This document shows positions 38,420 to 59,065 of a stretch of 64,000 nt of DNA, piece by piece. Source of the stretch: an uncultured Acidimicrobiaceae bacterium (lineage in GTDB: Bacteria; Actinomycetota; Acidimicrobiia; Acidimicrobiales; RAAP-2). The translations under genes and the position numbers were made by a program. How positions within the stretch are numbered: position 1 is the first letter of the stretch; the number at the start of each line of letters is the position of its first letter. The notes beneath the pieces are model-generated. The model saw only the letters and a list, made by a program, of their open reading frames with translations, searched no databases and had not been told where the DNA came from. The DNA is taken from assembly GCA_963816405.1 (NCBI GenBank), contig CAWFKN010000002.1, forward strand, positions 45,440 through 109,439, written 5' to 3'.

Positions 38420-38560
38420 GTGCCTCATGGTAGGTTCGCCCTGCAACAAGCACATAGGGCACCGATAGGGGAAGCCGGTCAAAGTCCGGCGCTGGTCCGC
38501 AACCGTGGGTGAGGCGTGGCATGCCACCTCTCACAAGTCGGGATACCGATCGATGTTCAG
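38420..38560 (+). promoter_or_regulatory. cobalamin (B12) riboswitch
   Basis: The core AGGGGAAGCCGGTCAAAGTCCGGCGCTGGTCCGCAACCGTG (38467-38507) matches the conserved GGGAA..GGTG.AA..CC...C.G..CCGC.AC.GT core. A B12-box-like AAGTCGGGATACC lies at 38535-38547, with a 5' GGTA that can pair with TACC. It sits about 100 nt upstream of the 38651 CDS. The boundaries are approximate. Confidence 0.8.
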
Positions 38561-38650
38561 GGAGTCCTCAACCGTCGAGATCGCGGCAGGGGCTCGGAGA
38601 TCCCATGCGGTGGGCTCCCCGGGTCATTGTCCCGGGAAAGAGAGTCCAGC

Positions 38651-39709: not shown

Positions 39710-39711
39710 CG

Positions 39712-44183: not shown

Positions 44184-44975
44184 CGTGGCGCGACGCGCGG
44201 TGCTGCTCGGGGCCGACGCGTCGCCCGACGCGCGGTGTGCCGCTCGCAGACGACGGCGGTAGGCGACGTCGAACTCGTCGAACCGCGCGCGCAGGAGCGG
44301 ACCGGGCCAGTCCCCCGGAAGGATCTCCGCCGGGAGCAGCGGGTCGCGCTGGAGGTGCCGCAGCACCTCGGCGTCGCACTCGAAGCCCTCGGCGAGCGCG
44401 CGGGGGCCGTCGAGCGTCATGTTCTCGAGCACGCGGCACAGGTGCGTCGCACGACGTGCCCAGCCCTCGAGATCGAACGCGATCGCGGCGAGCCGGGCCG
44501 GCTCGGCCTGTGGGCGCGCGAGGAACGTCGTGGTCGCAGCCGCCGTGGGCCCGTCGAGGGCGAGCTCGAGGTTGGCCGGCCGCACCCACGTCCCGTCGCG
44601 CAGCTCGCCGAGGCGCGCCCTGCGCAGCTCGTGGCGCCGGGCGCGCCGCGTCGCGGGGGTGTCGCCGGCAGCGGTCACGACCACCACGTGCCACTCCCCC
44701 GAGAACGGTCCCGTGGCCGCCGACCTCGACACCGTGAGGCGGCCCGAGCGCTCGAGCAGCCGTCCGCCGAGGCGGTAGCGGCCCTGGCCGTCGGCGACCA
44801 CCTCCCCACGGGCAGCCATCCTCGAGAGCGCGACCCGGGCTCGGTTCTCGTTGATCCCGAAGAGCGCCGCCACGCGGACCAGCCTGCGGACCTCGAGGGT
44901 CGGCGGGGACTCGCCGAGCAGCGCGCTCGCGAGAACGCTCCTCGCCGCGAGCGGTCTCTTACGATCTTGATCCAG
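44172..44975 (-). CDS. PaaX-family transcriptional regulator (start codon uncertain)
   Basis: This is the C-terminal part of the long ORF 44172..47072. The sequence is RPLAARSVLASALLGESPPTLEVRRLVRVAALFGINENRARVALSRMAARGEV...GTWVRPANL. There is no in-frame ATG, GTG or TTG nearby. The candidates are CTG 44975 or ATC 44984. Confidence 0.7.
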   Translation of the reverse strand: MDQDRKRPLAARSVLASALLGESPPTLEVRRLVRVAALFGINENRARVALSRMAARGEVVADGQGRYRLGGRLLERSGRLTVSRSAATGPFSGEWHVVVVTAAGDTPATRRARRHELRRARLGELRDGTWVRPANLELALDGPTAAATTTFLARPQAEPARLAAIAFDLEGWARRATHLCRVLENMTLDGPRALAEGFECDAEVLRHLQRDPLLPAEILPGDWPGPLLRARFDEFDVAYRRRLRAAHRASGDASAPSSTARRATSAR

Positions 44976-45014
44976 ACGTTCGATTTCTGTAAGATAGCGG
45001 GCGTGGTGGCGACG

Positions 45015-45959
45015 ATGGTGCCGACGGAGGCCGCGCGGCCCGACGTGCTGCCGACGGACCGCCTCTCGGCGACGGGGATGGCCCTGCCCGAGCTGCGCGC
45101 GAAGTACCGCACGATCGCCGACGCGCGCAATGTCGTGAGCGTCGCTGGTCTCTGGCTCGCCACGGCGCTGATCGTCGAGCTGGGCGTGCGGGTCGGGAAC
45201 CTCTGGCTCACGCTCGCTTGCTTCGTCGCGATGGGCCCCATCCATGCACGGTTCGCGATCCTCATGCACGAGGCCGCGCACAAGCTCCTCTTCACCGCGA
45301 AGCGGTGGAACGACTGGGTCGGCACGTGGCTGCTCGCCTACCCCGCCATGGTCCCGATCTCGATCTATCGTCGCAGCCACTTCGCGCACCACCGCGAGGA
45401 GTTCGGCCCCGACGAGCCGGACATCGCCTTCTACTCGGGCTACCCCGGCCGCCCCCGCGACCTGGTCCGTCGTCTTGCGCGCGACGCCGTCGGCATCTCG
45501 GGCTACAAGAACTTCAAGGTCCTCGTGCTCGCGACCCGCTCGAAGCAGGGCCGCACCGTCGCGGTCCCGATCCTCGCGGTGCAGGTCGTCCTCTTCGCCG
45601 CGATGTGGGCGGCGACCGGCGCGTGGTGGGCCTATCCGCTCTTCTGGTGGCTGAGCTGGATGACCCAGTGGCGCGTCCTCAACCGTCTGCGCGCGATCGC
45701 CGAGCACGGCGGGATGACCCGGAGCCGCGACCGCCGCGTCACCACGCACTGCGTCCGGCAGTCCTGGATCGCCCGGCTGTGGTTCGTCCCCTACAACACG
45801 GGCTGGCACCTCGCGCACCACGTCGACATGGGCGTGCCGTGGCGCCACCTGCCCGCGTTCCACGCCGAGCTCAAGGCTGCGGGCTACGTCACCGACGAGC
45901 TCACCTACCCGAGCTACTTCGCGCTGTGGCGCGCGGCGTGCTCGGCGCGCGCCGCCTGA
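45015..45959 (+). CDS. membrane fatty-acid desaturase family protein
   Basis: The start is ATG 45015 (or GTG 45003). His boxes are HEAAHK, HFAHHRE and HLAHHVD. It is divergent from the PaaX-like gene. Confidence 0.82.
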   Translation: MVPTEAARPDVLPTDRLSATGMALPELRAKYRTIADARNVVSVAGLWLATALIVELGVRVGNLWLTLACFVAMGPIHARFAILMHEAAHKLLFTAKRWNDWVGTWLLAYPAMVPISIYRRSHFAHHREEFGPDEPDIAFYSGYPGRPRDLVRRLARDAVGISGYKNFKVLVLATRSKQGRTVAVPILAVQVVLFAAMWAATGAWWAYPLFWWLSWMTQWRVLNRLRAIAEHGGMTRSRDRRVTTHCVRQSWIARLWFVPYNTGWHLAHHVDMGVPWRHLPAFHAELKAAGYVTDELTYPSYFALWRAACSARAA

Positions 45960-46153
45960 TCCGCACGCCGAGCCAGCCGGCCATCGCGCGGGCGGATCCT
46001 CCTGTCCTGCACGCCACCTTCGCCGACCTCGGTACCACCGCTCGCGACGAGCTGGATGGGCCGAGTCAGGGCTCGGGCACCCACAGAGCTGCGACACATC
46101 GGCGCCACGGCCACACGTGAGGAGGGGCGACGAGCGGGTCAGCCGATCCGGCG

Positions 46154-46939
46154 TCAGACCGACGTCATCCCGCCGTCGACGGCGACGGCGGCACCGGTGA
46201 GACCCGACGCCAGCTCCGAGCACAGCCACGCGATGAGCGCGGCGGGCTCGGCGGGCTCGAGGAGCCGGCCGATCGGCTGGTGCGCGGCGAGCTCCTCCCC
46301 CGACGAGAGGCCGTAGAGGGCCGCGGACGCCTCCAACATGGCCGTGCGCGTCGAGCCCGGGCAGATCGCGTTGACCGTGATGCCGGTGGTCGCGAGGTCC
46401 GCGGCCATCCCCCGCACGAGGCCGACGACGGCGTGCTTGGCGGCCGTGTACGCCGAGAGGTGCAGGAGCCCGACGCTCGACGCCGCCGACGAGATCGCGA
46501 CGAGGCGACCGTGCCGGGGCGCCGGGGCCTCGAGCAGCGCGGGCACCACGGCGCTGAACAGGCGACGCACCCCGTCGAGGTTCACCGACATGACGGCCTC
46601 GAACGCGGCGTCGGAGGTCTCCCACATCGGCGTGCCGCCGGCGATCACCCCGGCCGCGGCGACGGCAGCGTCGACGCCGCCGAACTGCGCGAGTGCGGTC
46701 TCGACGGCGAGCGCCATGTCCTCGGCGCTGCGGGCGTCCCCGACGAGCCCGAGGACGCGCCCGGGGTGTCGGGCGACGACGGCGTCGAGGTCCGCCGGGG
46801 TGGCCATCGGGTAGTCGACCCCCTCGACGTCCCGGCAGCGGTCGACGGCGAGCACGTGCCAGCCGTCGGCGACCAGGGCGTCGACGGTCGCCGCTCCGAT
46901 GCCGCGTGCGGCCCCGGTCACGAGCGCGACGCGGCTCAC
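46154..46939 (-). CDS. mycofactocin-coupled-type SDR family oxidoreductase
   Basis: Intact 261 aa with ALVTGAARGIGAATV and VLAVDRC....Y.MATPADL, as in the mycofactocin-associated SDR subfamily. The GTG start overlaps the mftE stop (GTGA). Confidence 0.8.
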   Translation of the reverse strand: MSRVALVTGAARGIGAATVDALVADGWHVLAVDRCRDVEGVDYPMATPADLDAVVARHPGRVLGLVGDARSAEDMALAVETALAQFGGVDAAVAAAGVIAGGTPMWETSDAAFEAVMSVNLDGVRRLFSAVVPALLEAPAPRHGRLVAISSAASSVGLLHLSAYTAAKHAVVGLVRGMAADLATTGITVNAICPGSTRTAMLEASAALYGLSSGEELAAHQPIGRLLEPAEPAALIAWLCSELASGLTGAAVAVDGGMTSV

Positions 46940-47625
46940 GCAGCCACCGGGAAGGCCGCGCCGACGGCGTGGACCAGGTCGTCGACGAGCGCATCGAGCA
47001 CTGCGTGCCCCTCGTCGGCGGAGGCATCGGTCGGATCGCCGAGCACGCCGGTCGGCGACACCGCGGCGACACCTGAGCGGCGCAGCTCTGCGAGGAGCTC
47101 GACCAACGGTGTCACGACGCCGACCACCAGCTCATTGTGCCGTACCAGGTCCTCGGCGAGGGCGAGCACCAGCGAGGTCTCGGTCCGGCCGGCGTGCGCG
47201 TCGCCGCCCCTGACGGCGGCTGCGAAGACCAGAACGTCGTCGCCGTCGTGGCGCGCGGTGCGCTCGACGGCGGCCAGCGCGTCGCGGTTGCCACCGTGCG
47301 CCGAGACGAAGACCACCCCCCTCGTCCAGCTGCGCGCGGAGCGGACCAGCTCGGTCAGGTAGGCCGCGAGCGCGTCGGTGCCGACCGACAGCGTCCCCGC
47401 GAACCCCGCGTGCTCCCCGCTCGCCCCCACGCCGACGAGGGGTGCGACCACGACGTCGCCGCGCTGCTCGCAGAGCCGTGCACAGAGCGCGGCGGCGACC
47501 AGCGCGTCGGTCGCGAGCGGCAGGTGCGGGCCGTGCTGCTCGCACGAGCCGAGCGGCACGGCGAGGACGATCCCCCCGTCGCGCGCGCCGGCCTCGGAGC
47601 TCGTGAGCGACCCGAGGTCGCTCAC
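46936..47625 (-). CDS. mftE: mycofactocin precursor peptidase MftE (creatininase family)
   Basis: AVPLGSCEQHGPHLPLATD...GEHAGFAGTLS...FVSAHGGN. The start is set at GTG 47625, which overlaps the etfB-like stop (GTGA). Confidence 0.82.
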   Translation of the reverse strand: MSDLGSLTSSEAGARDGGIVLAVPLGSCEQHGPHLPLATDALVAAALCARLCEQRGDVVVAPLVGVGASGEHAGFAGTLSVGTDALAAYLTELVRSARSWTRGVVFVSAHGGNRDALAAVERTARHDGDDVLVFAAAVRGGDAHAGRTETSLVLALAEDLVRHNELVVGVVTPLVELLAELRRSGVAAVSPTGVLGDPTDASADEGHAVLDALVDDLVHAVGAAFPVAA

Positions 47626-48497
47626 CGCAGGCCCCAGCGCGAGAGGCGGTCGAGGATCGCCTCGGCCGCGGCATCGGGATCGCACCGCAGCAGCTCGGGA
47701 GGATCACGGTGCTGGCGGGTCCCGACGACCTCGATCGCGCGCGCGACGGCGTCGCGTGCCTGCGGCGAGGCGAGGTCGCTCGGCCGAGGCCGGAAGGGGC
47801 CGATGCGCGTCCCAGGCGGATCACCCCGGTGGTCTGCGGCGCCCGCGCCGACCCGCACGACCTCGACGCGCCGGGGCTCGCGGGCCGTGGCGAGGACCGC
47901 GGCGAGCGACGCGCGAGCCGGCACGCCGGCGGTCGACGCCACCGACAGCACGCACGGCGGGTCGACCACGATCCGCTCGCGTCGACCGCCGTCGACGCGA
48001 CGCGTCCCCTCGATCCTCCCCTCGCGCACGGTGACGTCGCGCAGCGAGAGCGCCTGGGGCACGGCGAGCTCGCCGGCGAGGAATCCCGGGACCGTCCCAG
48101 ATCCGCGGTCGCCCGACGCGTCGCCGCAGACGACGACGGACGCCGCGCCAACGAGCCCCGCGAGGGCCGACGCCACCGCGTTGCTCCCAAGCTGGTCGTC
48201 GGGGCCGCCGCCGACGGCCTGGTCGGCGCCGACCGCGAGGCGCACCGCGCGCGCCGCGCCCTCTGCGAGCACGCCGGCCAGCACGCTGTCGGCGCTCGGA
48301 GCTGCGACCGAGAGGACGCCGAAGGCCGTCCCGAGCTCGGCGGCAACCACGGCGCCCACCGCGCACGCCGCGGCATCGGCGGGCGTGCGGACGAGGTGCC
48401 GGATGTCGCAGTGCACCGCACCCGTCAGCCAGTCCACCTCGAGCACCGGTGCGACGGGCTTGATCGCGACCCAGACGCCGACGTCGATGTCAGCCAC
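47622..48497 (-). CDS. etfB: electron transfer flavoprotein beta-subunit-like protein
   Basis: Intact 291 aa with an EtfB-like layout (VAIKPV..., VVVCGDASGDRGSGTVPGFLAGELAVPQ, RRVDGGRRERI). The GTG start overlaps fixX by 8 nt. Confidence 0.72.
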   Translation of the reverse strand: MADIDVGVWVAIKPVAPVLEVDWLTGAVHCDIRHLVRTPADAAACAVGAVVAAELGTAFGVLSVAAPSADSVLAGVLAEGAARAVRLAVGADQAVGGGPDDQLGSNAVASALAGLVGAASVVVCGDASGDRGSGTVPGFLAGELAVPQALSLRDVTVREGRIEGTRRVDGGRRERIVVDPPCVLSVASTAGVPARASLAAVLATAREPRRVEVVRVGAGAADHRGDPPGTRIGPFRPRPSDLASPQARDAVARAIEVVGTRQHRDPPELLRCDPDAAAEAILDRLSRWGLR

Positions 48498-48789
48498 GCC
48501 GGACGATCACCCCCTTGCCGCCCTCCGGGTAGCGCCAGGTGATCGCCCCGCCCTCGTCACAGGCGAGGTAGCACGAGCCGCATTCGAAGCACTGCTCGTA
48601 GTTGAAGAGCACGCCACCTGAGGAGAGCTCGACGAACAGGCCGGCGGGGCACACCGACACGCACGCCCTCGTCGTGCACCCCTCGCACGCGTCACCGTCG
48701 ACGACGATGTGGGCGCTGGCGGCGACGTCGAACGTCGCGGTCGCCATGCGGTCCTCGAAGTCGATCGCGTCGTAGCGGTCCTGGTTCAT
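48490..48789 (-). CDS. fixX: FixX-type ferredoxin-like protein
   Basis: 99 aa from ATG 48789, with CEGCTTRACVSVCPAG...CFECGSCYLAC. There is an ATGA overlap with the fixC stop. Confidence 0.85.
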   Translation of the reverse strand: MNQDRYDAIDFEDRMATATFDVAASAHIVVDGDACEGCTTRACVSVCPAGLFVELSSGGVLFNYEQCFECGSCYLACDEGGAITWRYPEGGKGVIVRRG

Positions 48790-50084
48790 CGGAACAGCCT
48801 CGCGGTGGCGAGGAGGTTCGCGAGCAGCGGGCGCAGCCGGACCTTGCGGGCGCGGAGGGTGACGCGGAGCGTCCGCAGCAGCCCGGGCTTGGGGCGGGGG
48901 TTGACGACGGTGAAGAACGACTCGGCGACGTCGCAGACGAGCCCAGGCTGCACGGACTGGGCGAACTCCGAGAACACCACGTCCGGTGCGCGTCGGAGGC
49001 GGCGATGGTCCTTCAGCACGAAGCCCTCCTCGAGGAGCCCGCGGTAGTGCTCGTGGGCGCCACCGACGCCGCCGGGCCGACCACGAGCGAGCACCGCGGC
49101 GCGGGCCGCGGCCTGGCCGGCCGCCATCGCGAAGTTCACGCCCTCGAGCCACACCCCGGCGGCGAGCGTCATCGACGCGGCGTCCCCGGCGACGACGATG
49201 CCGGGCGCCCCGAGCGTCGGCATCGCGTCGTAGCCGCCCTCGGGGATGAGGTGCGCGGCGTACTCGACGAGCGAGGCACCCCGCACGAGCGGCTCGATCG
49301 AGGGATGCGCCTTGAGGTCAGCGAGGACCTCCTCGGGCCGGCGCCTCGCCTCGGCCAGGTCGTCGAGCTTGAGCACGCAGCCGATCGCGAGCGTGTCGAG
49401 GTTCGTGTAGAGGAACCCGCCGCCCCGGATCGCACCGGTCGCACCGAGCATCTCGATGTCGCAGCCCTCTGTCCCTGAGAGGCCGAACCTCGACTCGAGC
49501 TCTCCGCGGTCGAGCGCCAGCACCTCTTTCACCCCGAGCGTCATGTGGTGGCGCGAGAACGACGGGTAGAGCCCGGCCTCGCGCGCAAGGAACGAGTTGA
49601 CGCCGTCGCAGGCGACGACGAGGCCGCACTCGAGCGCGCCGTCGGGTCGGTCCGTCGTGACGCCCGCCACGCGACCCGCGTCGCGCAGGAGCCCTGTGAC
49701 CGTCGTCGAGGTGACGAGCGTCGCGCCCGCCGCGACCGCCTCGTCGGCGAGCCACTGGTCGAACGCCGAGCGGTAGGCGGTCACCCCGTTGTACGGGGGC
49801 TCGCCCCATGCCCTCGCGCGCACGTCCACGCTCACGGACTGCGTCGGCGTCATGAGCATCGTCGAGCGCCGCGTCACGAACCGCTGGATCGGTGCGCGCT
49901 CCCACCAGCGCGGCAGCACCGAGTCGAGCACCCTCGGGTAGATCACGCCGCCGTAGACGTTCTTCGAGCCCGGGAACGGCCCGCGCTCGACGAGGCACGT
50001 GGCGACGCCCGCCCTCGCGAGCTCGAGCGCGGCGATCGACCCCGCGGGACCGGCACCGACCACCACGACGTCGAACGTCGTCAT
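48786..50084 (-). CDS. fixC: FixC-type FAD-dependent oxidoreductase (ETF-quinone oxidoreductase-like)
   Basis: 432 aa from ATG 50084, starting MTTFDVVVVGAGPAGSIAALELA...KNVYGGVIY. There is an ATGA overlap with the etfA stop. Confidence 0.85.
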   Translation of the reverse strand: MTTFDVVVVGAGPAGSIAALELARAGVATCLVERGPFPGSKNVYGGVIYPRVLDSVLPRWWERAPIQRFVTRRSTMLMTPTQSVSVDVRARAWGEPPYNGVTAYRSAFDQWLADEAVAAGATLVTSTTVTGLLRDAGRVAGVTTDRPDGALECGLVVACDGVNSFLAREAGLYPSFSRHHMTLGVKEVLALDRGELESRFGLSGTEGCDIEMLGATGAIRGGGFLYTNLDTLAIGCVLKLDDLAEARRRPEEVLADLKAHPSIEPLVRGASLVEYAAHLIPEGGYDAMPTLGAPGIVVAGDAASMTLAAGVWLEGVNFAMAAGQAAARAAVLARGRPGGVGGAHEHYRGLLEEGFVLKDHRRLRRAPDVVFSEFAQSVQPGLVCDVAESFFTVVNPRPKPGLLRTLRVTLRARKVRLRPLLANLLATARLFR

Positions 50085-50998
50085 GGCGCCGCCTCGCCCA
50101 GCCGCCGGACGAGGGCGTCGAGCGTCCCGGCCGCGTCGGCGACGACCGCGAGGTCGGCCATCGCCATCATCGGGCACGCCGCGTCGGTGTTCACCGCGAC
50201 GATCCGTCGTGGCGCACCGAGTCCCGCGGTGTGCTGGACCGCCCCAGAGATGCCGAACGCGAGGTAGAGGGTGGGATCCACGGCGACGCCGGTCGTCCCG
50301 ATCTGTCGCTCGTGGCCGACGATGCCGCGGTCGGCGACCGGCCGCGTCGCGCCGAGTGAGGCGCCGAGCGCGGTGGCGACCTCGCCGAGCACGGCGAACT
50401 CGTCCGCGCCGCCGAGCCCCACCCCGCCCGCGACGATGCGGTCGGCGTCGGCGAGGTCGAGCTCGCCGGGGTCGGCATCTTCGACCGCGACCACGTCGGC
50501 GTCCCGCAGGGAGCCGGAGCGGTCCGGCGCGCGGTCCACCGTGCGGACTTCTGCGACCGCGTCGCCGACGACGTGGCCCGGCGGGGACGCGAACGGGAGC
50601 AGCGTGGCGACGAAGGCATGGCTGACGGGCACCGTGACCGACGCCGCCCCGTCGTGGCGCGTCATCACCACCTCGTCGGGAGCGACCGCCGTGCACCCTG
50701 CGAAGCACGGCCGCGACATCGCGTGCGCGAGCCGGGCGAGGAGGTCGCGGCCGTCGGGCGCACCGGGCAGCACGACGTGCGGCTCGTCGACGAGCAGCGC
50801 CGCGAGGCCCTCTGCCCAACGTGCCGGTGCGAAGGGCCCGGCCTCCCAGGCGGTCGCCTCGAGCACCGGGGTGCGGATCGACGCCACGGCGGCCCTCGTG
50901 CCCTCGCCGACCACGAGCACGCGACCGGCGCACTCGCGCACCACGGCGTCCGCGCCCGCGGGGAGTCGACCGTCACGCACGGGGACGACCGCGATCAC
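50081..50998 (-). CDS. etfA: electron transfer flavoprotein alpha-subunit-like protein
   Basis: Intact 305 aa. The C-terminal FAD domain reads GATRPVADRGIVGHERQIGTTGVAVDPTLYLAFGISGAVQH. The GTG start overlaps the upstream stop (GTGA). Confidence 0.85.
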   Translation of the reverse strand: MIAVVPVRDGRLPAGADAVVRECAGRVLVVGEGTRAAVASIRTPVLEATAWEAGPFAPARWAEGLAALLVDEPHVVLPGAPDGRDLLARLAHAMSRPCFAGCTAVAPDEVVMTRHDGAASVTVPVSHAFVATLLPFASPPGHVVGDAVAEVRTVDRAPDRSGSLRDADVVAVEDADPGELDLADADRIVAGGVGLGGADEFAVLGEVATALGASLGATRPVADRGIVGHERQIGTTGVAVDPTLYLAFGISGAVQHTAGLGAPRRIVAVNTDAACPMMAMADLAVVADAAGTLDALVRRLGEAAP

Positions 50999-52956
50999 AG
51001 GCTCCTCCCGACGCGCTCGCCATCGAGCACCGCGGCGTGCGCCCGTCGCGGTGCGCGCGCGTCACCGATCACGTGCACGGCGTGCCCCGCGGCTCGCAGC
51101 GAGCCGGCGAGCGTGTCCTCGGGCAGCGCGGGCAGCGCGAGGACGACGCAGTCGACGCTGCGGGCGCCCGCCTCGCCCGTGAGGAGGTGCTGGGTCGCGA
51201 CACCACCTGGCACGAGTGCGGTGACCATCGTCGACGTCGTCTGGACGATGCCCTTGTCGCGCGCCCGCACGCAGAACTGCTCCAGGTCGAGCGTCACGCC
51301 GAGATCCTGTCCGACGACGAGCGCGGGGCTCGCGATCTCGACGCGGTGCCCCCGATCGGCGAGGAGCTCCGCGACCGAGGTCCCCTGGTGGAAGCCCAGC
51401 TCGTCGACCACGAGCACGTCGGCGCCCGGGACCTCGGCACCCCGCAGGACGTCAGTCACGTCGAGGAGCACGGGTGCGCCCTCGGGCCGGTCCCCTGCCC
51501 ACCATGGGGCGGCCGGCCGCGACCCGGTGGCGACGACGACGACCTCGGCGGCGTACGACTCGACGGCGGCCAGGTCGGCGGCGACGCCGGTCGCGACCTC
51601 GACCCCGAGCACGCGGAGCTCCCCCGCGAGGTTGCGGACGAGGTCACCGAACTCGGCGCGTCCGGGCACCCGCGCGGCGAGGGCGACCTGCCCTCCGACC
51701 TCGTCGTCGCGCTCGAGCACCACGACCTCGTGGCCACGCGACGCCGCGGTCACCGCGACCTGGAGCCCTGCCGGCCCCGCGCCGACGACCACCACCCTGC
51801 GACGTCGCGTCGGCGCGGCCACGGCGGCCTGCGCCTCCCTGCCGGAGCGCGGGCTCTCGATGCACCCGAGCCACCGGTTGAGTCCCATCCGACCGACGCA
51901 CTCCTGGTTGCACGACAGGCACAGCCGGATGGCCTCTCCGTGCCCCGACCGCGCCTTGCGCGCGAAGTCGGCGTCGGCAATCTGGCCGCGGACGATGCCG
52001 ACCAGGTCGCAGTGGCCCTCGGTCAGCGCTCGGTCCGCCTGGATGGGGTCCTTGAACCGCCCGACGCCGATCACCGGGAGCGCCACACGTCGGCGGATGG
52101 CCGCGGGGATGTACAGCGCGTACCCGGGCCGCACGGCCATCGACGCCTCGATCGCGAACAGGGACGCCGTCGCGGTGCCGATCGACGTGTTGAGGTAGTC
52201 GACGGCACCGGTCGTCTCGACCATCGCCGCGACCTCGACGGCCTCGTCGATCGTCGTCCCGTCCTCGATGAGCTCGTCGCCGCACAGCCGCACGCCGAGC
52301 GCGCGGTCCGGTCCGATCGCCGTGCGCACCTCGGTGACGAGCGTGAGGAGGAGGCGCGCGCGATTCGCCAGCGTCCCGCCCCACTCGTCGTCACGATGGT
52401 TCGTCGCCCCCGACAGGAACGCGCGGACGATCGAGGAGTGCGAGCACTGCAGCTCGACGCCGTCGAAGCCCCCCTCGACGCAGCGCGCGGCCACGTCCAC
52501 GTAGCCCTCGACGATCGCGCGCAGCTCCCGCTCGTCCACCGCCTTCGGGACCTCGCGGAACAGCGGGTCCGGGACCGCCGACGGCGCCCAGACCGCCAGC
52601 CGCGAGTACATGGACGACGCCTGGCCGCCGTTGTGGTTCAGCTGGGCAAGGATCGGCGTGCCGTGGGCGTGCACTGCGTCGGTAATGCGTCGGTACCCGG
52701 GGAGCACCTTCGGACTGAAGCCGTGGATGAGCTTCTCGTAGGGCCAGTCCGTCGGGTGCGTCGAGTGCTCCTCGGTGATGATGAGCCCCGCGCCGCCGCG
52801 CGCGCGGGCTGCGTAGTACGCCGCATGCTGGGCCGAGGGCAGCCCGCGCTCCGCGTAGTTGGTCAGGTGCGCCGAGAAGACGATCCGGTTCGTGAGGTGC
52901 AGCGGGCCGAGCGAGATCGGGGTGAACAGCAGCTCGTGGCGGTGCGGCCTCGTCAT
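50995..52956 (-). CDS. FadH/OYE-family flavoenzyme (OYE TIM barrel + 4Fe-4S + FAD/NAD(P) domain), mycofactocin-system type
   Basis: Intact 653 aa with an OYE-like N-terminus (NRIVFSAHLTN), the Cys cluster CLSCNQECVGR...C and VVVVGAGPAGLQVA. There is an ATGA overlap with the upstream paralogue. Confidence 0.82.
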   Translation of the reverse strand: MTRPHRHELLFTPISLGPLHLTNRIVFSAHLTNYAERGLPSAQHAAYYAARARGGAGLIITEEHSTHPTDWPYEKLIHGFSPKVLPGYRRITDAVHAHGTPILAQLNHNGGQASSMYSRLAVWAPSAVPDPLFREVPKAVDERELRAIVEGYVDVAARCVEGGFDGVELQCSHSSIVRAFLSGATNHRDDEWGGTLANRARLLLTLVTEVRTAIGPDRALGVRLCGDELIEDGTTIDEAVEVAAMVETTGAVDYLNTSIGTATASLFAIEASMAVRPGYALYIPAAIRRRVALPVIGVGRFKDPIQADRALTEGHCDLVGIVRGQIADADFARKARSGHGEAIRLCLSCNQECVGRMGLNRWLGCIESPRSGREAQAAVAAPTRRRRVVVVGAGPAGLQVAVTAASRGHEVVVLERDDEVGGQVALAARVPGRAEFGDLVRNLAGELRVLGVEVATGVAADLAAVESYAAEVVVVATGSRPAAPWWAGDRPEGAPVLLDVTDVLRGAEVPGADVLVVDELGFHQGTSVAELLADRGHRVEIASPALVVGQDLGVTLDLEQFCVRARDKGIVQTTSTMVTALVPGGVATQHLLTGEAGARSVDCVVLALPALPEDTLAGSLRAAGHAVHVIGDARAPRRAHAAVLDGERVGRSL

Positions 52957-54893
52957 CGACGCTCCTCTCGCGCGCCGACCGCGGCGCGTCGTGCCTCGAG
53001 CATCGCCATCAGGATCCCGCGCGGCGCGACCGCGTCGCCGATGGCGGTCGCGTCACGCCACGGGCTCGCCGCGGGCAGCCGGTGCCCGGCGTCCACGCAG
53101 GTGTCGGCGTCGAGCGAGGCGGCCTCGCCGGTGAAGCGGTCCTCGAGGAGCACCTGGCCCGAGCCGATGGCGACGGCGGCGGCGTGGTGCACCACCGTGA
53201 CGCCCGCACGGGCGAGTCGCTCGTTGGCTGCGACCAGGTCGCCGGTGAGCGACAGCTGCGAGCCCACGACGACGTCGGGGGTCACGAGCGTCACCGCGGC
53301 GCCCCGCGCGGCGGCGAGCTCGGCGACGCCGACGCCGACCGGCCCGCCCACGGTGTCGAGCACGACCACGCGACCGGCCAGCGGGGAGCCCTGCGCGGCG
53401 GCAAGGGCGTCGAGGCGGGTGACAGAGCCGTCGTCGCCCCCGCGCATCGCGAGCGGCGTCGCGACGCCACCGGTCGCGGCGATCACGACGGCGGTTCCGG
53501 CGAGCTCACCGTCACTCGGCTCGCGACCGGTGACGACCGTGACGCCCTCGGCGCCGACCTCGGCCTCGAGCCAGTCGCACAGCGCCGCGAGGCGCTCGCG
53601 ACCGGGGAGGCGCGCCGCGGTGCGCAGCGTGCCGCCGAGCCCCACGTCCCGCTCGACCACGGTGACGCGATGGCCCCGACGCGCGAGGAGCCGCGCGGCC
53701 TCAAGCCCCGCGATCCCGCCGCCCACGACGAGCGCGGCACCGGCGGTCCCGGGCGCCTCGGGCTCGTCGCCGTCGACGTCGAGGTGCCCGTCGGTCGTCT
53801 CGTGGCCCGCGACCGGGTTCACGCAGCACGACACGATCGGGTTCCTCGGGTCGCGCACCGTGCAGTGCTGGTTGCACAGCAGGCACGGCCGGATCCGGGC
53901 CGCGCGCCCCGTTGCGAGCTTGCGGCAGAGGTCGGGGTCTGCGATCTGGGCCCGCGTCATCTCGACGAGGGCGACGCCGTCACCGAGGGCCCGCTCGGCG
54001 ACCGCGACGTCGGCGATCGAGCCCTGCGCGCACACGAGCGCGGTGCACCCGGCCGAGGCCAGCGCCGCAGCGACGACGCGGGTCGCCTCGGCGTTGCAGC
54101 CCTGGGGATGGTGCGCGTCGGGCTGGGTGGCCGCCTCCGAGTAGATCGACCCGCGCACGATGCAGACGTAGTCGACGTCGTGGGCCACCTCGGCGAGGAT
54201 GCGCGCGGCCTCCCCCGGCGTGATGCCCGCCCACGGGGCGAGCTCGTCGGCGCAGAATCGCAGCCCGAGCACCCCGTTGCCGAGCGCCCCGCGGACCTCT
54301 GCGAGCACCTCGCGCACGAGCCGCGCGCGGTCGCCGCCGTAGGCGTCGTCCCGGAGGTTCGTGAGGCCCGAGCAGAACTGGCGGAGCAGGCTGTGCTGCC
54401 CGGCGTTGAGCTCCACGCCGTCGCAGCCGCTCGCTCGAGCCAGGGACGCCGCGGCGGCGAAGCCGGTGACGAGGGCGTCGATCTCCTCGCGGCCCATGAC
54501 CAGGGGCTGCTCGCGCGTCATCACGTTCGCGACGAGCGACGGCGCCCACAGCACGTCCTGGCTCCATGACGTCGAGCCCTGCATGCCGGCATGGCCGAGC
54601 CCCGCGAGCACGAGCGTGCCGTGGGGATGGCAGGCGGCCGCGGTCGCGGCCCATCCTGGCGCGCACACCGAGGCGAGTGGTGCTCGCTCGTAGGGCCAGT
54701 CGCTCGGGTGCACCGAGGCGACCTCGGCCACGACGATCCCGCACCCGCCGCGCGCGCGACGCCCGTAGTAGGCGGCGTGACGCGCCGAGATGGCCCGGTC
54801 GTCGCCAAGGTTCGTCACGTGGGGCCCGAACAGCACCCGATTCGGCGCGGTCGCCGCCCCGATCGCGACGGCATCGAGCAGCGGCGACGTCAC
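52953..54893 (-). CDS. FadH/OYE-family flavoenzyme, second paralogue
   Basis: Intact 646 aa with NRVLFGPHVTN, CLLCNQHCTVRDPRNPIVSCCVNP and LVVGGGIAGLEAA. The GTG start overlaps the mftC stop (GTGA). Confidence 0.82.
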   Translation of the reverse strand: MTSPLLDAVAIGAATAPNRVLFGPHVTNLGDDRAISARHAAYYGRRARGGCGIVVAEVASVHPSDWPYERAPLASVCAPGWAATAAACHPHGTLVLAGLGHAGMQGSTSWSQDVLWAPSLVANVMTREQPLVMGREEIDALVTGFAAAASLARASGCDGVELNAGQHSLLRQFCSGLTNLRDDAYGGDRARLVREVLAEVRGALGNGVLGLRFCADELAPWAGITPGEAARILAEVAHDVDYVCIVRGSIYSEAATQPDAHHPQGCNAEATRVVAAALASAGCTALVCAQGSIADVAVAERALGDGVALVEMTRAQIADPDLCRKLATGRAARIRPCLLCNQHCTVRDPRNPIVSCCVNPVAGHETTDGHLDVDGDEPEAPGTAGAALVVGGGIAGLEAARLLARRGHRVTVVERDVGLGGTLRTAARLPGRERLAALCDWLEAEVGAEGVTVVTGREPSDGELAGTAVVIAATGGVATPLAMRGGDDGSVTRLDALAAAQGSPLAGRVVVLDTVGGPVGVGVAELAAARGAAVTLVTPDVVVGSQLSLTGDLVAANERLARAGVTVVHHAAAVAIGSGQVLLEDRFTGEAASLDADTCVDAGHRLPAASPWRDATAIGDAVAPRGILMAMLEARRAAVGAREERR

Positions 54894-55990
54894 GGCGCGA
54901 CGGGCGCCACCACGAGGGAGTGGTCAGGCGCGCTGCGCGGCCGCAGCAGCACCGGCGCGCCGTCGCCGTGGCCCTTCACGCACTCGGGGTCCGGGCCGTC
55001 GAGCTCCATCCCCGTGAAGAACTTCGCCGCCATGCACCCGCCTCGGCACGCGTCATAGGCGCCACAGGTCCGGCACGCGCCGCCGCTGCTCGGCTCGCGC
55101 AGCGCGGCAAAGGTCGGCGCATCGCGCCAGACGGCGCCGAAGCCACCGTCGTGGCGGATCGACCCCGCCCGGAACTGCTCGTGGATCGCGAACGGGCAGG
55201 CGTAGACGTCGCCGATCGGGTCGACGAGGCAGACGACCCGGCCCGCCCCGCACAGGTTGACGCCCTCGAGGGGGGCACCGAGCGCGGAGAGGTGGAAGAA
55301 CGAGTCCCCGGTGAGCGTGTCAGGGTGGTCGCACAGCCACGCGTACAGCTCGCGGTTCTGCGCAGCCGTCGGGCGCAACCGGTCCCAGCTCGCAACGCCG
55401 CGGCCGGAGGGCCGAAGCCTGGTGAGGCGCAGCTGGGCCCCGAATCGAGCGGCCAGCGATCTGAAGTCGTCGAGCTGCTCGACGTTCTCGCGGGTCACGA
55501 CGACCGAGACCTTGAAGGCTCCGAACCCGGCGCCGCTGAGGGCGGCCATCGCGCCGAGCGCCGCGTCGTAGGAGCCCACGCCGCGGACCGAGTCGTTCAC
55601 CTCGGCGGTCGCCCCGTCGATCGACACCTGGACGTCGACGTAGTCCATCGCCGCGAGCCGGGCGGCGCGGCGTGCGTCGATGCGCGTGCCGTTGGTCGAG
55701 AACTTGACCCCGACCCGCCGGGACACGGCGTGCTCCAGCAGCTCGAAGAAGTCGCCACGGATCGTCGGCTCGCCCCCGCCCACGTTGACGTAGAACACCT
55801 GGAGGTCCGCGAGCTCGTCGATGAACTCGACTGCCTCGGCCGTGGTCAGCTCGTCGGGGTCACGGCGGCCCGACGAGCTGAGGCAGTGCACGCAGGCGAG
55901 GTTGCACGCCCAGGTGAGCTCCCAGGTGAGGCAGATCGGCGCGGACAGGCCGAGCTCGAGGCGGTCGCGCAGCGAGGCGTCAGCGGCCAT
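54890..55990 (-). CDS. mftC: mycofactocin radical SAM maturase
   Basis: Intact 366 aa with CNLACVHC (CxxxCxxC) and a SPASM C-terminus (CGAGRVVCLVDPIGDVYACPF...CRTCGAYDACRGGC). It lies immediately downstream of mftA and mftB. Confidence 0.92.
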   Translation of the reverse strand: MAADASLRDRLELGLSAPICLTWELTWACNLACVHCLSSSGRRDPDELTTAEAVEFIDELADLQVFYVNVGGGEPTIRGDFFELLEHAVSRRVGVKFSTNGTRIDARRAARLAAMDYVDVQVSIDGATAEVNDSVRGVGSYDAALGAMAALSGAGFGAFKVSVVVTRENVEQLDDFRSLAARFGAQLRLTRLRPSGRGVASWDRLRPTAAQNRELYAWLCDHPDTLTGDSFFHLSALGAPLEGVNLCGAGRVVCLVDPIGDVYACPFAIHEQFRAGSIRHDGGFGAVWRDAPTFAALREPSSGGACRTCGAYDACRGGCMAAKFFTGMELDGPDPECVKGHGDGAPVLLRPRSAPDHSLVVAPVAP

Positions 55991-56291
55991 CGACGACCCC
56001 GGACTCGCTGAGCCGCCCGATCGCGGCCACGATCGCGTCGACCTCCTGGTCCGTCACGTGCGCCCGCGCTGCGGCGCGCGGCGAGTCGTGGTGCTCGAGG
56101 TCGCGCAGCACCGCGACGAGCTCGTCGGACTTCACGAAGACGAGGCGCCGCGTGTCGTAGTGGTACGCGAGCGCACCAAATGGCTCAGGGCGCAGCGCCA
56201 CCTGGGGATGGAGCCGGGCCGGGACGTCGGGATCGAACGCCCGGGGCGCCTGATCGGGCGCCACGCGATCAGTAGACGCCGCAGAGCCCAT
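55980..56291 (-). CDS. mftB: mycofactocin precursor chaperone MftB (RRE/PqqD-like)
   Basis: RLHPQVALRPEPFGALAYHYDTRRLVFVKSDELVAVL. An ATG at 56291 would overlap mftA by 23 nt. An in-frame GTG at 56264 is an alternative start. Confidence 0.88.
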   Translation of the reverse strand: MGSAASTDRVAPDQAPRAFDPDVPARLHPQVALRPEPFGALAYHYDTRRLVFVKSDELVAVLRDLEHHDSPRAAARAHVTDQEVDAIVAAIGRLSESGVVDGR

Positions 56292-56379
56292 CGATCGAGA
56301 CCTCCTCGACCAGCAGCTCGGTGGCGGGCTCGTCGTCGTGCTCGACGGCGTCCTCGTGCTCGATCGTCCGCTCAGTCAT
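56269..56379 (-). CDS. mftA: mycofactocin precursor peptide
   Basis: I translated this by hand, because at 36 aa it is absent from the supplied ORF track. The sequence is MTERTIEHEDAVEHDDEPATELLVEEVSIDGLCGVY*. The acidic leader plus C-terminal IDG-x-CGVY is the MftA hallmark. Confidence 0.9.
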   Translation of the reverse strand: MTERTIEHEDAVEHDDEPATELLVEEVSIDGLCGVY

Positions 56380-56459
56380 TCGACGCCTCCAATGGGTGGG
56401 GCGGCCATTCTGCCGCCTGCGCAGGGGTGGCCCGCGCGGTCGCCGTGCCAGACTCGCCC

Positions 56460-57927
56460 ATGGCCCCAGCAGCGCTCGAGGCCGTTCGCGATGAGACGCC
56501 GCGGGGCGTGCTCGCCGCTGGGACCCGCTTGCGCCGCGATGCCTCGTTCGAGTGGGTCGCCGACACCCTCGTCGCGGGCGGCTCGCCGTGGCGCCTCGTC
56601 CGCCTCAGCGACCAGGGCGCGCGCCTCGTCGGTGCCTGGCTCGCTGGCGAGCCCGTGGCCGCCGACCCCATGTCCGGCGCGCTGGCCCGACGGCTCGTCG
56701 ACGCCGGCATCGTGCACCCCGCACACGACCCGCGCAGCCCCGACCCCGGCGAGGTCGACGTGGTCGTGCCCGTCCGTGACGACCCGGCTGGACTCGACAC
56801 GCTGCTCCGCGTGCTCTCGCGGACCCCGTCCCTGCGGGTGACCGTCGTCGACGACGGCTCCGCCGACGAAGGCGCGATCGCCCGCATCGCACGTGCGAAC
56901 GACGCCACCCTCGTGCGCCACGAGGTGCCGCTCGGACCCGCCGCCGCCCGCAATGCTGGGAGCTCGAGCACGACCGCGCCGCTCGTCGCGTTCCTCGACG
57001 CCGACGTCGTGCCCGAGCCCGACTGGCTCGACGAGCTCGTCGGGTACTTCGCGGACGCCGAGGTCGGCGCGGTCGCGCCACGGCTGCGCGGACCCCTGGG
57101 CGACTCGATCCGCGAGCGCTTTGAGGTCGCCGCCTCCCCACTCGACCTCGGGGACCAGCGCGGAGTCGTCCGGCCCGGCGCCGCAGTCCCCTTCGTGCCC
57201 TCCGCGGCGCTGGTCGTGCGACGACGCGCCCTGGGCGACGGGTTCGACGAGGACCTCCGCGTCGGCGAGGACGTCGACTTCGTCTGGCGGCTCGTCGCAG
57301 AGGGCTGGCAGGTCCGCTACGAGCCCTCGGTCGTCGTGACCCACGCGGCCCGACCGACGTGGCGCGGGTGGGTCGCCCAGCGGTTCTCCTACGGCCTGTC
57401 CGCCGCACCGCTCGAGGCGCGCCACGGCGACGCGGCCGCCCCGCTGCGAGCGGACCCTCGCGTCCTCGCGCACCGTCGGGCTGCTCCTCTTCGGACGGCC
57501 GCGCGCGGCCGTCGGCCTCCTCAGCTGGTCGGCGGCATCGCTCTCGCGCCAGCTCGAGGGCGTGGCGGTGCGAGGCGGCAGCGAGGCCGCGGCGCGCCAG
57601 CTGGCCGCGCGAGGCACCGCGCTCGCCGCACCCGGGCTCGCACGGGGCGCGTTCCGCTCCTACGGCCCCGTGCTCCTCGTCGCGGCGGCCGCCATCTCGC
57701 CGCTACGCCGACCCGTCGCGACGCTCGCGGTCGCGGCGACCGCAGCGAGGTGGTGGCGTGCGGGTCGACCGACCCCCTCGCTCGCCTTCGCTGGGCTCAG
57801 CCTCGCCGACGACCTCGTCTACGGCGCCGGCGTCCTCACCGGGGCCGTGCGCGCACGGCGGACGGGCGCGCTGCGCCCCCGGCTGCGGCCCGCGGCCTCG
57901 GTGGTCGCGCCGATCAGTCGAACTTGA
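56460..57927 (+). pseudogene. mftF: mycofactocin-system glycosyltransferase MftF, one frameshift near 57445
   Basis: The GT2 core is VVVPVRDD...VVDDGSAD...FLDADVVP...VGEDVDFVWR. After ...APLEARHGDAAAPLRA the protein continues in the +1 frame (TLASSRTVGLLLFGRP...LADDLVYGAGVLTGAV). It is divergent from mftA. An alternative start is GTG 56427. Confidence 0.82.
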
Positions 57928-59065
57928 CCACGCCGCGGACGTTCTTGCCCGACTCGACGTCGTCGTAGCCCTGCTGGACCTCGTCGAGCGTGTACTCCTT
58001 GGTGATCAGCTCGTCGACCTTCAGCTGGCCCATCCGGTACAGCTCGAGCAGCCGCGGGATCTGGAGGCGCGGGTTGGCCGAGCCGAAGATGCAGCCCATG
58101 AGGTTCTTGTTGTAGAGGGTGAAGGTCCCGAGATCGAGCGAGACGTCCTTCTGGCCCTGCGGGGCGATCGCGACGACGACGATCCGCCCGTCCTTGCCCG
58201 CTGCCTCGACGGCCGGCCCGATGAGGTCGCCGGTCATCAGCCCCGGCGTGAGGATGACCGCGTCGGCGAGGCGGCCCCTCGTCAGCTCCGCGGCGAGGAA
58301 CGTCGCCTCGAGGAGGTTGGACGCGCCATGGGTCGCGCCGATCTTCTTGGCCCGCTCGATCTTGGACTCGAGCAGGTCGACCGCGATGATCACCTCGGCT
58401 CCAGCGATCCGTGCGCCCTGGATCGCGCCTGAGCCCACGCCACCGCAGCCGACCACGATCACGCAGTCGCCCGGCTGCACGCGCGCACGGTCGACGGCGG
58501 CGCCGAAGCCCGTCGACAGCCCGCAGCTGATGAGCGCGGCGGCACGGAGGTTCACGCCCGTGTCGATCTTCACGAGCGACGCCTCGCTCACGACCATCCG
58601 CTCGGCGAAGGTGCCGAGCTGGCACATCCGGTTGAGCACCTCGTCACCGAGGTGGTGTCGCCACGTGCCGTCCGAGACCATGGGGCCCGCGACGATCGTG
58701 GTGCCGAGGTCGCAGATGTACGAGCGCCCCGACACGCACCACTGGCACTTGCCGCAGGACGGGATGAACGACGCCGCCACCGAGTCCCCGACGGCGAACC
58801 CCTTGACGTCCTCTCCGACCGCCTCGACGATGCCGGCGCCCTCGTGGCCGCCGATGGCCGGGTACATCGAGCCATGGGGCGTGAGCATCTCGAGGATCTC
58901 GGTCGGCAGCCCGAAGTCACCGCTGCGCAGGTGCTCGTCGGAGTGGCAGAGGCCCGCGTAGGCCATCTTCACCTGGACCTCGCTGGCGGCCGGCGGATCG
59001 ATCTCGATCTCCTCGGTCTTCCACGGCTCCTTGGCACCGCCCACAATCGACGCCCTCACCTGCAT
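57914..59065 (-). CDS. Zn-dependent alcohol dehydrogenase, NDMA-dependent/mycofactocin-associated type
   Basis: Intact 383 aa with GLCHSDEH, GHEGAGIVEAVG, the structural Zn Cys cluster CGKCQWCVSGRSYIC and GCGGVG. It sits next to the mft genes. Confidence 0.8.
   Translation of the reverse strand: MQVRASIVGGAKEPWKTEEIEIDPPAASEVQVKMAYAGLCHSDEHLRSGDFGLPTEILEMLTPHGSMYPAIGGHEGAGIVEAVGEDVKGFAVGDSVAASFIPSCGKCQWCVSGRSYICDLGTTIVAGPMVSDGTWRHHLGDEVLNRMCQLGTFAERMVVSEASLVKIDTGVNLRAAALISCGLSTGFGAAVDRARVQPGDCVIVVGCGGVGSGAIQGARIAGAEVIIAVDLLESKIERAKKIGATHGASNLLEATFLAAELTRGRLADAVILTPGLMTGDLIGPAVEAAGKDGRIVVVAIAPQGQKDVSLDLGTFTLYNKNLMGCIFGSANPRLQIPRLLELYRMGQLKVDELITKEYTLDEVQQGYDDVESGKNVRGVVKFD

Follow-up and report, generated by a model that had tools for sequence, protein, structure and literature searches.

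We analyzed a 64-kb stretch of DNA from an uncultured Acidimicrobiia bacterium, here called the window, which carries a mycofactocin gene cluster that combines genes for the biosynthesis of the cofactor with genes for a putative electron-transfer chain. The biology of mycofactocin is known almost wholly from mycobacteria, and Acidimicrobiia are abundant in soil and freshwater. The GC content of the window is 70-76%. Eleven consecutive open reading frames (ORFs) are located on the minus strand, from position 56379 down to position 46154, and no in-frame stop codon or frame break was present over these 10.2 kb. In the coding frames of the 11 ORFs, the GC content at third codon positions (GC3) is 0.86-0.94. 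An earlier annotation made from the letters alone (the sequence-only reading) had described eleven minus-strand genes with these limits and about 10 kb free of frameshifts, and all of the ORFs and their intact frames were recovered.

The encoded proteins were assigned to families with NCBIfam profiles, whose scores in bits were compared with the curated cut-offs, and with Pfam (Table 1). Eight of the 11 proteins exceeded the cut-offs of mycofactocin-specific models, namely MftA, MftB, MftC, MftE, the two flavoenzymes OYE_1 and OYE_2, the alpha subunit of the electron transfer flavoprotein (ETF), and the short-chain dehydrogenase/reductase (SDR). The identities that had been proposed before for mftA, mftB, mftC, mftE, the OYE genes, and the SDR gene were thereby confirmed. 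In addition, the radical SAM motif CxxxCxxC and the SPASM cysteines were found in the MftC translation. For the proposed ETF gene set the outcome was mixed: etfA passed its specific model, EtfB had the mycofactocin-associated beta subunit model as its best match yet stayed below the cut-off, and FixC and FixX were below the cut-offs of generic models. The best NCBIfam matches of FixC were PRK10015 and PRK10157, and a mycofactocin-specific model exists neither for FixC nor for FixX; two cysteine motifs are present in the FixX translation. Membership in generic rather than mycofactocin-associated subfamilies, which the sequence-only reading had named as the outcome that would speak against it, was thus not observed for the OYE proteins, EtfA, and SDR, with a caveat for EtfB.

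Table 1. Features of the mycofactocin locus in the window, ordered by position (scores in bits, curated cut-offs in brackets)
Feature	Position	Strand	Evidence and remarks
GC-rich hairpin, 9 bp	46142..46163	-	spans the SDR stop codon; present in minimum free energy and centroid folds
Mycofactocin-coupled SDR, last operon gene	46154..46939	-	TIGR04504 SDR_subfam_2 343 (250)
mftE, creatininase-family peptidase releasing AHDP	46936..47625	-	TIGR03964 254 (172); Pfam Creatininase
etfB, mycofactocin-associated ETF beta (EtfB/FixA type), highly divergent	47622..48497	-	best match TIGR04503 153, below cut-off (200)
fixX, ferredoxin-like, two 4Fe-4S cluster motifs	48490..48789	-	7KOE_D, E 3e-13; PRK15449 47.6, below cut-off
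fixC, ETF-quinone oxidoreductase-type FAD protein	48786..50084	-	7KOE_C, E 1.7e-68; ETF-quinone oxidoreductase 2GMH, E 5e-17
etfA, mycofactocin-associated ETF alpha (EtfA/FixB type)	50081..50998	-	NF038209 316 (240); Pfam ETF_alpha
OYE_2, mycofactocin-system FadH/OYE oxidoreductase 2	50995..52956	-	TIGR03997 920 (793)
OYE_1, mycofactocin-system FadH/OYE oxidoreductase 1	52953..54893	-	TIGR03996 707 (628)
mftC, radical SAM/SPASM maturase	54890..55990	-	TIGR03962 593 (265); Pfam Radical_SAM and SPASM
mftB, precursor-binding chaperone	55980..56291	-	TIGR03967 85.8 (33); start ATG 56291 or GTG 56264
mftA, mycofactocin precursor peptide	56269..56379	-	36 aa, C-terminus IDGLCGVY; TIGR03969 40.8 (25); PF23709 43.1
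Divergent intergenic region mftA-mftF, 80 bp	56380..56459		presumed promoter region
mftF, mycofactocin glycosyltransferase	56460..57927	+	divergent from mftA, 80 bp upstream; reading frame shifted by +1 (position about 57471)
Rxyl_3153-type (NDMA-dependent) Zn alcohol dehydrogenase (ADH)	57914..59065	-	TIGR03989 473 (440); adjoins mftF

From mftB onward, all junctions of the operon are overlaps. The genes mftB and mftC share 11 nt (55980-55990), fixX and etfB share 8 nt (48490-48497), and the remaining seven junctions are four nucleotide overlaps of the GTGA/ATGA type at 54890, 52953, 50995, 50081, 48786, 47622, and 46936. Positions and lengths were exactly those of the sequence-only reading. 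The junction of mftA and mftB is ambiguous, because the genes overlap by 23 nt if mftB starts with the ATG at 56291, whereas a gap of 4 nt results from a start at the GTG at 56264. The ATG is preceded by a GAGGAGG Shine-Dalgarno motif 7 nt upstream, and mftA also has an upstream Shine-Dalgarno motif, GGAGG. The chosen start codons are supported by several observations. The alignments with the profile hidden Markov models (HMMs) start at most 1-10 residues from the proposed N-termini, with the exception of mftB, whose long ORF is matched only from residue 21 on. Nine operon products (all except those of mftA and mftB) and the adjacent ADH are annotated with identical starts on a single NCBI/ENA contig of 517,478 bp. 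Furthermore, the overlap series of -11, -4, -4, -4, -4, -4, -8, -4, and -4 is repeated in the orthologous loci L034 and L002, the genes of which have 56-89% amino acid identity. Overlaps of this kind are common in high-GC operons, and their mere existence is statistically unsurprising; it is their conservation in orthologous loci that shows that they are real.

The overlaps suggest that the genes from mftA to the SDR gene would be transcribed together, most likely from one promoter upstream of mftA, yielding a single, translationally coupled mRNA. Internal promoters or terminators, which would split such a unit, were not detected: a consensus scan of both strands yielded neither terminators nor sigma-70 promoters, a result that says little at 75% GC. 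In the spacer between mftA and mftF, a conserved sequence, CAGAATGGCCGC, precedes the mftA ATG by about 28 nt (alignment of 56380-56459 with positions 4520-4600 of L034) and is a candidate -10 region. A search of this spacer for an inverted repeat that might serve as an operator was negative. At the other end of the operon, the hairpin at the SDR stop codon is a possible transcript end, but it is not followed by a U tract. The folding stability of the spacer between the SDR gene and the downstream desaturase gene did not exceed that of shuffled sequence (z = +1.17), and the evidence for this hairpin is therefore weak.

Related loci were collected in a scan based on EtfA alignments with one genome per GTDB species. 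This yielded at least 492 loci, the best 80 of which were examined; the GTDB representatives obtained did not include the genome of the window itself. The best 80 loci all belong to Acidimicrobiia, i.e. to Ilumatobacteraceae, Microthrixaceae, Acidimicrobiales, and the isolate IMCC26207. The order etfA-fixC-fixX-etfB was colinear in 66 of the 66 loci whose sequence extended 3.5 kb or more beyond the start of etfA. Among the 80 loci, mftE was found nearby in 49, mftF in 51, and OYE_2 in 49, and the upstream order mftA-mftB-mftC-OYE_1-OYE_2 was observed where the contigs extended far enough. The core mftABC-OYE_1-OYE_2-etfA-fixC-fixX-etfB-mftE is thus common to the window and the Acidimicrobiia clusters with a mycofactocin-associated ETF (IMCC26207, Ilumatobacter, metagenome-assembled genomes of Microthrixaceae). 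Locus L034 has the order of the window including the divergent mftF, the ADH gene, argS, and the desaturase/PaaX-like flanks, with identical overlaps. L002 matches the window wherever it is readable, with an assembly gap covering mftA and mftB, and the layout of L014 is nearly the same. In most relatives, in contrast, mftF directly follows mftE and an SDR gene is absent from this place, and in many of them unrelated genes or gaps lie between the blocks. The window carries the most compact form of the Acidimicrobiia cluster. Three records of metagenome-assembled genomes (CAMDAT01, CAMDLX01, and CAMCZG01, i.e. L058, L061, and L066) are titled Bifidobacterium breve; their clusters are nearly identical to that of IMCC26207, and the labels look wrong.

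The sequence-only reading had described seven redox genes as inserted between maturase and peptidase, but this is not a one-time event: the layout is the standard mycofactocin architecture of Acidimicrobiia in the 80 loci, and the locus is an ordinary member of this lineage-wide architecture. As to how widespread the exact arrangement is, a point raised at the same time, the etfA-fixC-fixX-etfB block is found throughout the lineage, whereas the exact order together with the overlaps was found in two metagenome-assembled genomes, L034 and, where readable, L002. The gene association itself is already known from the NCBIfam models NF038209, TIGR04503, TIGR03996, and TIGR03997 and from the product names of the NCBI annotation pipeline PGAP, and a homologue bears the NCBI product name 'mycofactocin-associated electron transfer flavoprotein beta subunit'. 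In the literature library that was searched, we did not find a paper dealing with this association. The value of the locus is that of a clean, compact exemplar and a source of hypotheses, not that of the discovery of a new system.

The comparison also bears on the question of whether the redox genes belong to the mycofactocin system at all. They could be mere neighbours, brought together by operon shuffling, that serve the catabolism of enoyl- or acyl-CoA compounds or of amines feeding an ETF. In many Ilumatobacteraceae loci, unrelated genes part the blocks: purE, purK, and a DedA gene lie between OYE_2 and etfA, a transporter/TetR pair lies between etfB and mftE, and separate transcription would be possible. 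The matches of FixC and FixX to generic models only are also compatible with this explanation. However, most of the 80 loci, which represent several families, have the ETF block beside mftE/mftF or mftC. For OYE_1, OYE_2, EtfA, and EtfB there are curated HMMs specific to mycofactocin systems, and all but that for EtfB were passed. Moreover, the redox genes overlap with mft genes on both sides in the window, L002, and L034. We therefore regard mere neighbourhood as very unlikely.

The locus was also compared with the canonical cluster mftR-mftABCDEF-mftG of mycobacteria (Rv0691c-Rv0697 of M. tuberculosis; M. smegmatis). Both contain MftA with its GVY end, MftB, MftC, MftE, and MftF, and genes for SDR and Rxyl_3153-type ADH are adjacent. 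In contrast to the canonical cluster, neither mftD nor mftG nor a TetR-type mftR was found in the window, mftE is distal, mftF is divergent and frameshifted, and six redox genes (OYE_1, OYE_2, etfA, fixC, fixX, etfB) lie between mftC and mftE. The searches for mftD and mftG covered the 64-kb window and, in the relatives, 10 kb around etfA. With an MftD probe that had been validated (731 bits with TIGR03966), the best tblastn hit in the window had an E value of 0.94, and a match within 10 kb of etfA was obtained in none of the 80 loci. The sequence-only reading had noted, relative to the canonical order mftABCDEF, the displacement of mftE; mftD, however, is absent from the window, not displaced. 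The ORFs in the gaps of the Ilumatobacteraceae locus L018 were inspected as possible hidden mftD or mftG genes, but they turned out to be purE, purK, a DedA-family gene, an acetyltransferase gene, a TetR regulator gene, or ORFs in a wrong frame. The local lack of mftD prompts one to ask by what enzyme the redox-active centre of the cofactor is generated in Acidimicrobiia.

The mftF gene, which like the ADH gene is located just beyond the span described by the sequence-only reading, is interrupted in the window. The MftF match is split over two frames, with positions 14-315 of TIGR03965 in one (310 bits, cut-off 280) and positions 341-466 in the other. In accordance, tblastn with the intact MftF of L034 gave matches at 56460-57470 in frame 3 and at 57403-57924 in frame 1. 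The indel is one extra base (...CTC GCG [C] ACC GTC...), and among the window, L034, and L002 it is confined to the window, the other two having intact orthologues. It may be either a real lesion that turned mftF into a pseudogene or an isolated assembly error. Indel errors throughout the assembly were considered and rejected, since the remaining ORF overlaps in the window are those of ordinary neighbouring genes (atpB, glyA, hom, lysA, and the ECF transporter genes), and the mftF indel is thus isolated. The 3' ends of mftF (stop codon at 57927) and of the ADH gene converge and overlap by 14 nt (57914-57927).

The frameshift in mftF, together with the failure to find mftD in the 64 kb, could indicate that the system is decaying and does not produce functional mycofactocin. 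Yet, the 11 operon ORFs are intact with uniformly high GC3 values, their catalytic motifs are conserved, and no other split gene was present among the window genes examined, so that the lone indel may be an assembly error. In addition, relatives with an intact mftF also lack mftD nearby. Of all the explanations considered here, we give decay the least credence.

The SDR and the Rxyl_3153-type ADH, the gene of which occupies the corresponding position in L002 and L034 (89% identity), belong to nicotinoprotein families with mycofactocin as external electron acceptor (Haft 2011, PMC3023750). Some route for the reoxidation of the cofactor is therefore needed, and in mycobacteria this role is fulfilled by MftG. 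MftG is a GMC flavoprotein that functions as mycofactocin dehydrogenase and hands electrons of mycofactocinol over to respiration (Graca et al., eLife 2025, PMC11778925). About 25% of the genomes with MftC lack MftG, and their alternative was left as an open question; every one of the four Acidimicrobiia genomes in the MftC/MftG table of that study (two Aquihabitans, Iamia, and Ilumatobacter coccineus) is positive for MftC and negative for MftG (PMC11778925, supplementary file 2). With a validated GMC probe, genes of this family were detected neither in the window nor, in the 80 relatives, within 10 kb of etfA.

A candidate for such an alternative is the module of the two OYE genes with etfA, fixC, fixX, and etfB. 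In its four-subunit composition of ETF alpha, ETF beta, FixC, and a FixX with two [4Fe-4S] clusters, the ETF part resembles the EtfABCX/FixABCX complexes (T. maritima 7KOE; Azotobacter vinelandii FixABCX), but it differs in the gene order alpha-C-X-beta and in the location of the genes inside a cofactor-biosynthesis operon. The closest solved relatives of FixC and FixX are EtfC and EtfX of Thermotoga maritima, followed by mammalian ETF-quinone oxidoreductase. EtfC and EtfX of T. maritima reduce menaquinone and are part of a bifurcating complex (PMC10734219). The PDB matches of EtfA are CarE, 4KPU_A, 1EFP_A, and 7KOE_B.

The EtfB of the window is very divergent. It has no Pfam match, and its best PDB sequence match has an E value of only 1e-7. 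However, an AlphaFold model based on 33 homologues had a pLDDT of 82.9, and the top 21 PDB fold matches of this model are all ETF beta chains. Furthermore, etfB lies directly after fixX in 69 of the 80 related loci, i.e. in those in which all four genes were detected. On the basis of synteny and predicted fold, we accepted the protein as a divergent ETF beta subunit. Its nucleotide-site motif is strongly altered: the stretch that corresponds to G(R/K)Q..D.D..Q.G reads GDASGDRGSGTV.

OYE_1 and OYE_2 belong to the family of three-domain FMN/4Fe-4S enzymes that includes FadH, 2-naphthoyl-CoA reductase (NCR), histamine dehydrogenase, and trimethylamine dehydrogenase (TMADH). OYE_1 consists of an FMN domain, a 4Fe-4S cysteine motif, an FAD/ADP-binding domain, and a third domain that has no GxGxxG; in the PDB it comes closest to histamine dehydrogenase (6DE6) and FadH (1PS9). 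OYE_2 matches FadH, NCR, histamine dehydrogenase, and TMADH. Both proteins contain the motif Cys-x2-Cys-x3-Cys...Cys and the GxGxxG of domain 2, whereas domain 3 lacks the NADPH-binding glycine motif and reads DELGFHQG in OYE_2 and DTVGGPVG in OYE_1. The third domain can be aligned throughout with histamine dehydrogenase and NCR, neither of which uses NAD(P)H at this place, but the alignment, as found for OYE_2, breaks at the NADPH domain of FadH. The Fe-S motif of OYE_2, RLCLSCNQECVGRMGLNRWLGCIE, was invariant in 13 of 13 aligned orthologues. In contrast, only one of the four 4Fe-4S cysteines remains in OYE_1 of the IMCC26207 clade (L070, L058, and L072; RPCTLSNQRSQ...). With the TMADH-ETF pair of Methylophilus methylotrophus, which has been solved as a complex (PDB 1O94), and with histamine dehydrogenase, OYE_1 and OYE_2 share the FMN, 4Fe-4S, and ADP/FAD domains, a third domain devoid of the dinucleotide glycine motif, and an ETF, encoded next door in the window. 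Nevertheless, they are at least as similar to FadH and NCR as to TMADH and histamine dehydrogenase. TMADH carries a covalent 6-S-cysteinyl FMN at Cys30 within the motif V-P-H-C. At this position, all orthologues have PHVTN in OYE_1 and AHLTN in OYE_2, i.e. an H-x-T-N motif without the cysteine.

In several relatives an additional small ORF accompanies the OYE genes. It encodes about 150 amino acids with a hydrophobic C-terminus, has no Pfam match, and adjoins OYE_2 in L070 (7399-7854, plus strand). It is conserved at the equivalent position in L058, L061, L072, L056, L047, L040, and L044 and is not present in the window. Wherever OYE_1 and OYE_2 both occur, it sits between them.

Taken together, we propose that the operon combines mycofactocin biosynthesis with a dedicated route from mycofactocin via ETF and FixCX to menaquinone that would act in place of MftG, a proposal in which we have even confidence. 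The operon products would fall into three parts. The maturation part would comprise the precursor MftA, the chaperone MftB, the radical SAM decarboxylase/cyclase MftC, and the peptidase MftE, which would release AHDP. The electron-transfer part would comprise OYE_1 and OYE_2 with FMN, [4Fe-4S], and FAD or ADP, the EtfA-EtfB heterodimer, and FixC/FixX as membrane-associated ETF:quinone oxidoreductase. The third part would be the mycofactocin-dependent SDR, with the Rxyl_3153-type ADH and mftF as flanking genes. The nicotinoproteins SDR and ADH would reduce mycofactocin, and the resulting mycofactocinol would be reoxidized by OYE_1 and/or OYE_2 at their FMN site. The electrons would then be passed via the 4Fe-4S cluster to the FAD of ETF, as in the TMADH-ETF pair, and further through the two FixX clusters and the FAD of FixC to menaquinone.

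The chain from OYE via ETF to FixCX is the simplest one, because genes for ETF and an ETF:quinone oxidoreductase lie immediately downstream of the OYE genes and because TMADH-type enzymes use protein partners. The direction would also be downhill, as the potential of premycofactocin is about -255 mV and that of menaquinone is -74 mV. A role of the module as MftG substitute is preferred because Acidimicrobiia have MftC, lack MftG, and require a route of reoxidation. The module has no homology to MftG. Shared would be just the role, reoxidation of mycofactocinol and delivery of electrons to respiration, which in this hypothesis is taken over by a multi-protein flavin/Fe-S chain.

Several points weigh against this proposal. 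The direction of electron flow is not fixed by the sequence. The closest characterized FixABCX/EtfABCX complexes are bifurcating enzymes that oxidize NADH, and FixABCX and YdiQRST of E. coli are thought to feed reductases. The characterized relatives of the OYE proteins, including FadH, NCR, and BaiCD, are mostly C=C reductases, not dehydrogenases, and neither OYE_1 nor OYE_2 has the cysteine for the covalent FMN of TMADH and histamine dehydrogenase. The two proteins also occur in Rhodococcus, a carrier of MftG, and hence they would not be simple MftG substitutes. Finally, the EtfB score is below the curated cut-off, mftF is frameshifted, and the window does not contain mftD, the gene required for making the redox-active keto-amide. 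In spite of these points, all four alternatives were ranked lower, i.e. operon shuffling and decay, discussed above, and the two that follow.

One of these assigns a different function to OYE_1. It may be a non-homologous replacement of MftD, i.e. an FMN/Fe-S amine dehydrogenase that deaminates AHDP to premycofactocin and delivers the electrons via ETF/FixCX. OYE_1 occupies the slot after mftC, which is the place of mftD in the canonical cluster, and an MftD homologue was found neither in the window nor within 10 kb of etfA in the 80 relatives. OYE_1 follows mftC in eight loci, with a junction of at most 150 nt in seven of the eight. Its best PDB match, histamine dehydrogenase, is an oxidative amine deaminase, and ETF is the acceptor in the TMADH family (1O94). 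MftD is, moreover, not universal, as had been noted earlier (Haft 2011, PMC3023750). On the other hand, mftD could be located elsewhere in the genome, OYE_1 has no cysteine for a covalent FMN, and the OYE_1 proteins of the IMCC26207 clade are devoid of three of the four Fe-S cysteines. OYE_1 is also nearly as similar to FadH as to histamine dehydrogenase, and the OYE_1 family occurs alongside MftD in Rhodococcus and Frankia. Replacement of MftD by OYE_1 therefore appears clearly unlikely to us.

The other alternative concerns the direction of electron flow. ETF-FixCX could be a bifurcating or reverse-running complex of the FixABCX/EtfABCX type that oxidizes NADH or mycofactocinol at a bifurcating FAD. 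One electron would be passed to menaquinone, whereas the low-potential electron would be passed to the OYE reductases, with mycofactocin or an enoyl-type compound as substrate, or to the radical SAM cluster of MftC. For FixC and FixX, the best PDB matches come from the bifurcating complex of T. maritima (PMC10734219), and bifurcating proteins, namely CarE and the EtfA of A. fermentans, are also the top PDB matches of EtfA. Among the nearest solved and curated relatives of OYE_1 and OYE_2 are reductases fed by a partner protein or NADPH, namely FadH, NCR, BaiCD, and bilirubin reductase. Bifurcation from mycofactocinol would be energetically just possible: (-74 + x)/2 = -255 mV yields a potential x of about -436 mV for the second electron. 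However, bifurcating ETFs do not stand out in the comparisons: the non-bifurcating ETFs of Paracoccus and human have nearly equal PDB sequence and fold scores for EtfA and EtfB. With its altered GDASGDRGSGTV stretch, EtfB is too divergent for a dinucleotide or NADH site to be read, and neither a bifurcating FAD nor the use of NADH can be deduced from its sequence. The operon does not contain a gene for a ferredoxin or flavodoxin acceptor, and the cultured members of the Acidimicrobiia lineage are aerobic. We consider bifurcation to be rather unlikely. Still more improbable, in our view, is a specific version in which OYE_1/OYE_2-EtfAB-FixCX carries out a bifurcation driven by mycofactocinol (about -255 mV) that serves both menaquinone and a ferredoxin-like potential for OYE/FadH-type reductases or MftC, making MftG, and possibly also MftD, dispensable.

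With the proposed route from mycofactocin via ETF and FixCX to menaquinone, the locus offers a concrete candidate for the group with mftC and without mftG, to which the Acidimicrobiia belong, and it can be tested biochemically. Its remaining interest lies in the OYE/ETF module as a candidate MftG-independent exit for electrons, in the absence of mftD from the vicinity, and in the frameshifted mftF.

Directly downstream of the operon, at 44172-45959, the window contains a gene for a membrane protein similar to fatty acid desaturases and a divergent gene for a PaaX-like regulator. The pair was also found near the clusters of L002 and L034 (about 14.9-16.6 kb) and of L081 (7613-9426), and the desaturase gene alone was found in L069 (6635-7615). 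A TetR-like gene that could represent mftR was not present among the window genes examined, and the PaaX-like regulator may control the operon instead of MftR. A run of plus-strand genes at 38513-44183 encodes a secreted protein with prenyltransferase/squalene-cyclase-like repeats, a small membrane protein, an ECF-type transmembrane component, a duplicated ABC ATPase, and another membrane protein. The gene for this last protein, the one of the run that was probed in L002 and L034, is conserved in both. The rest of the window contains housekeeping genes, namely argS, acnA, the atp operon, glyA, hom, lysA, thrC, and gdh.

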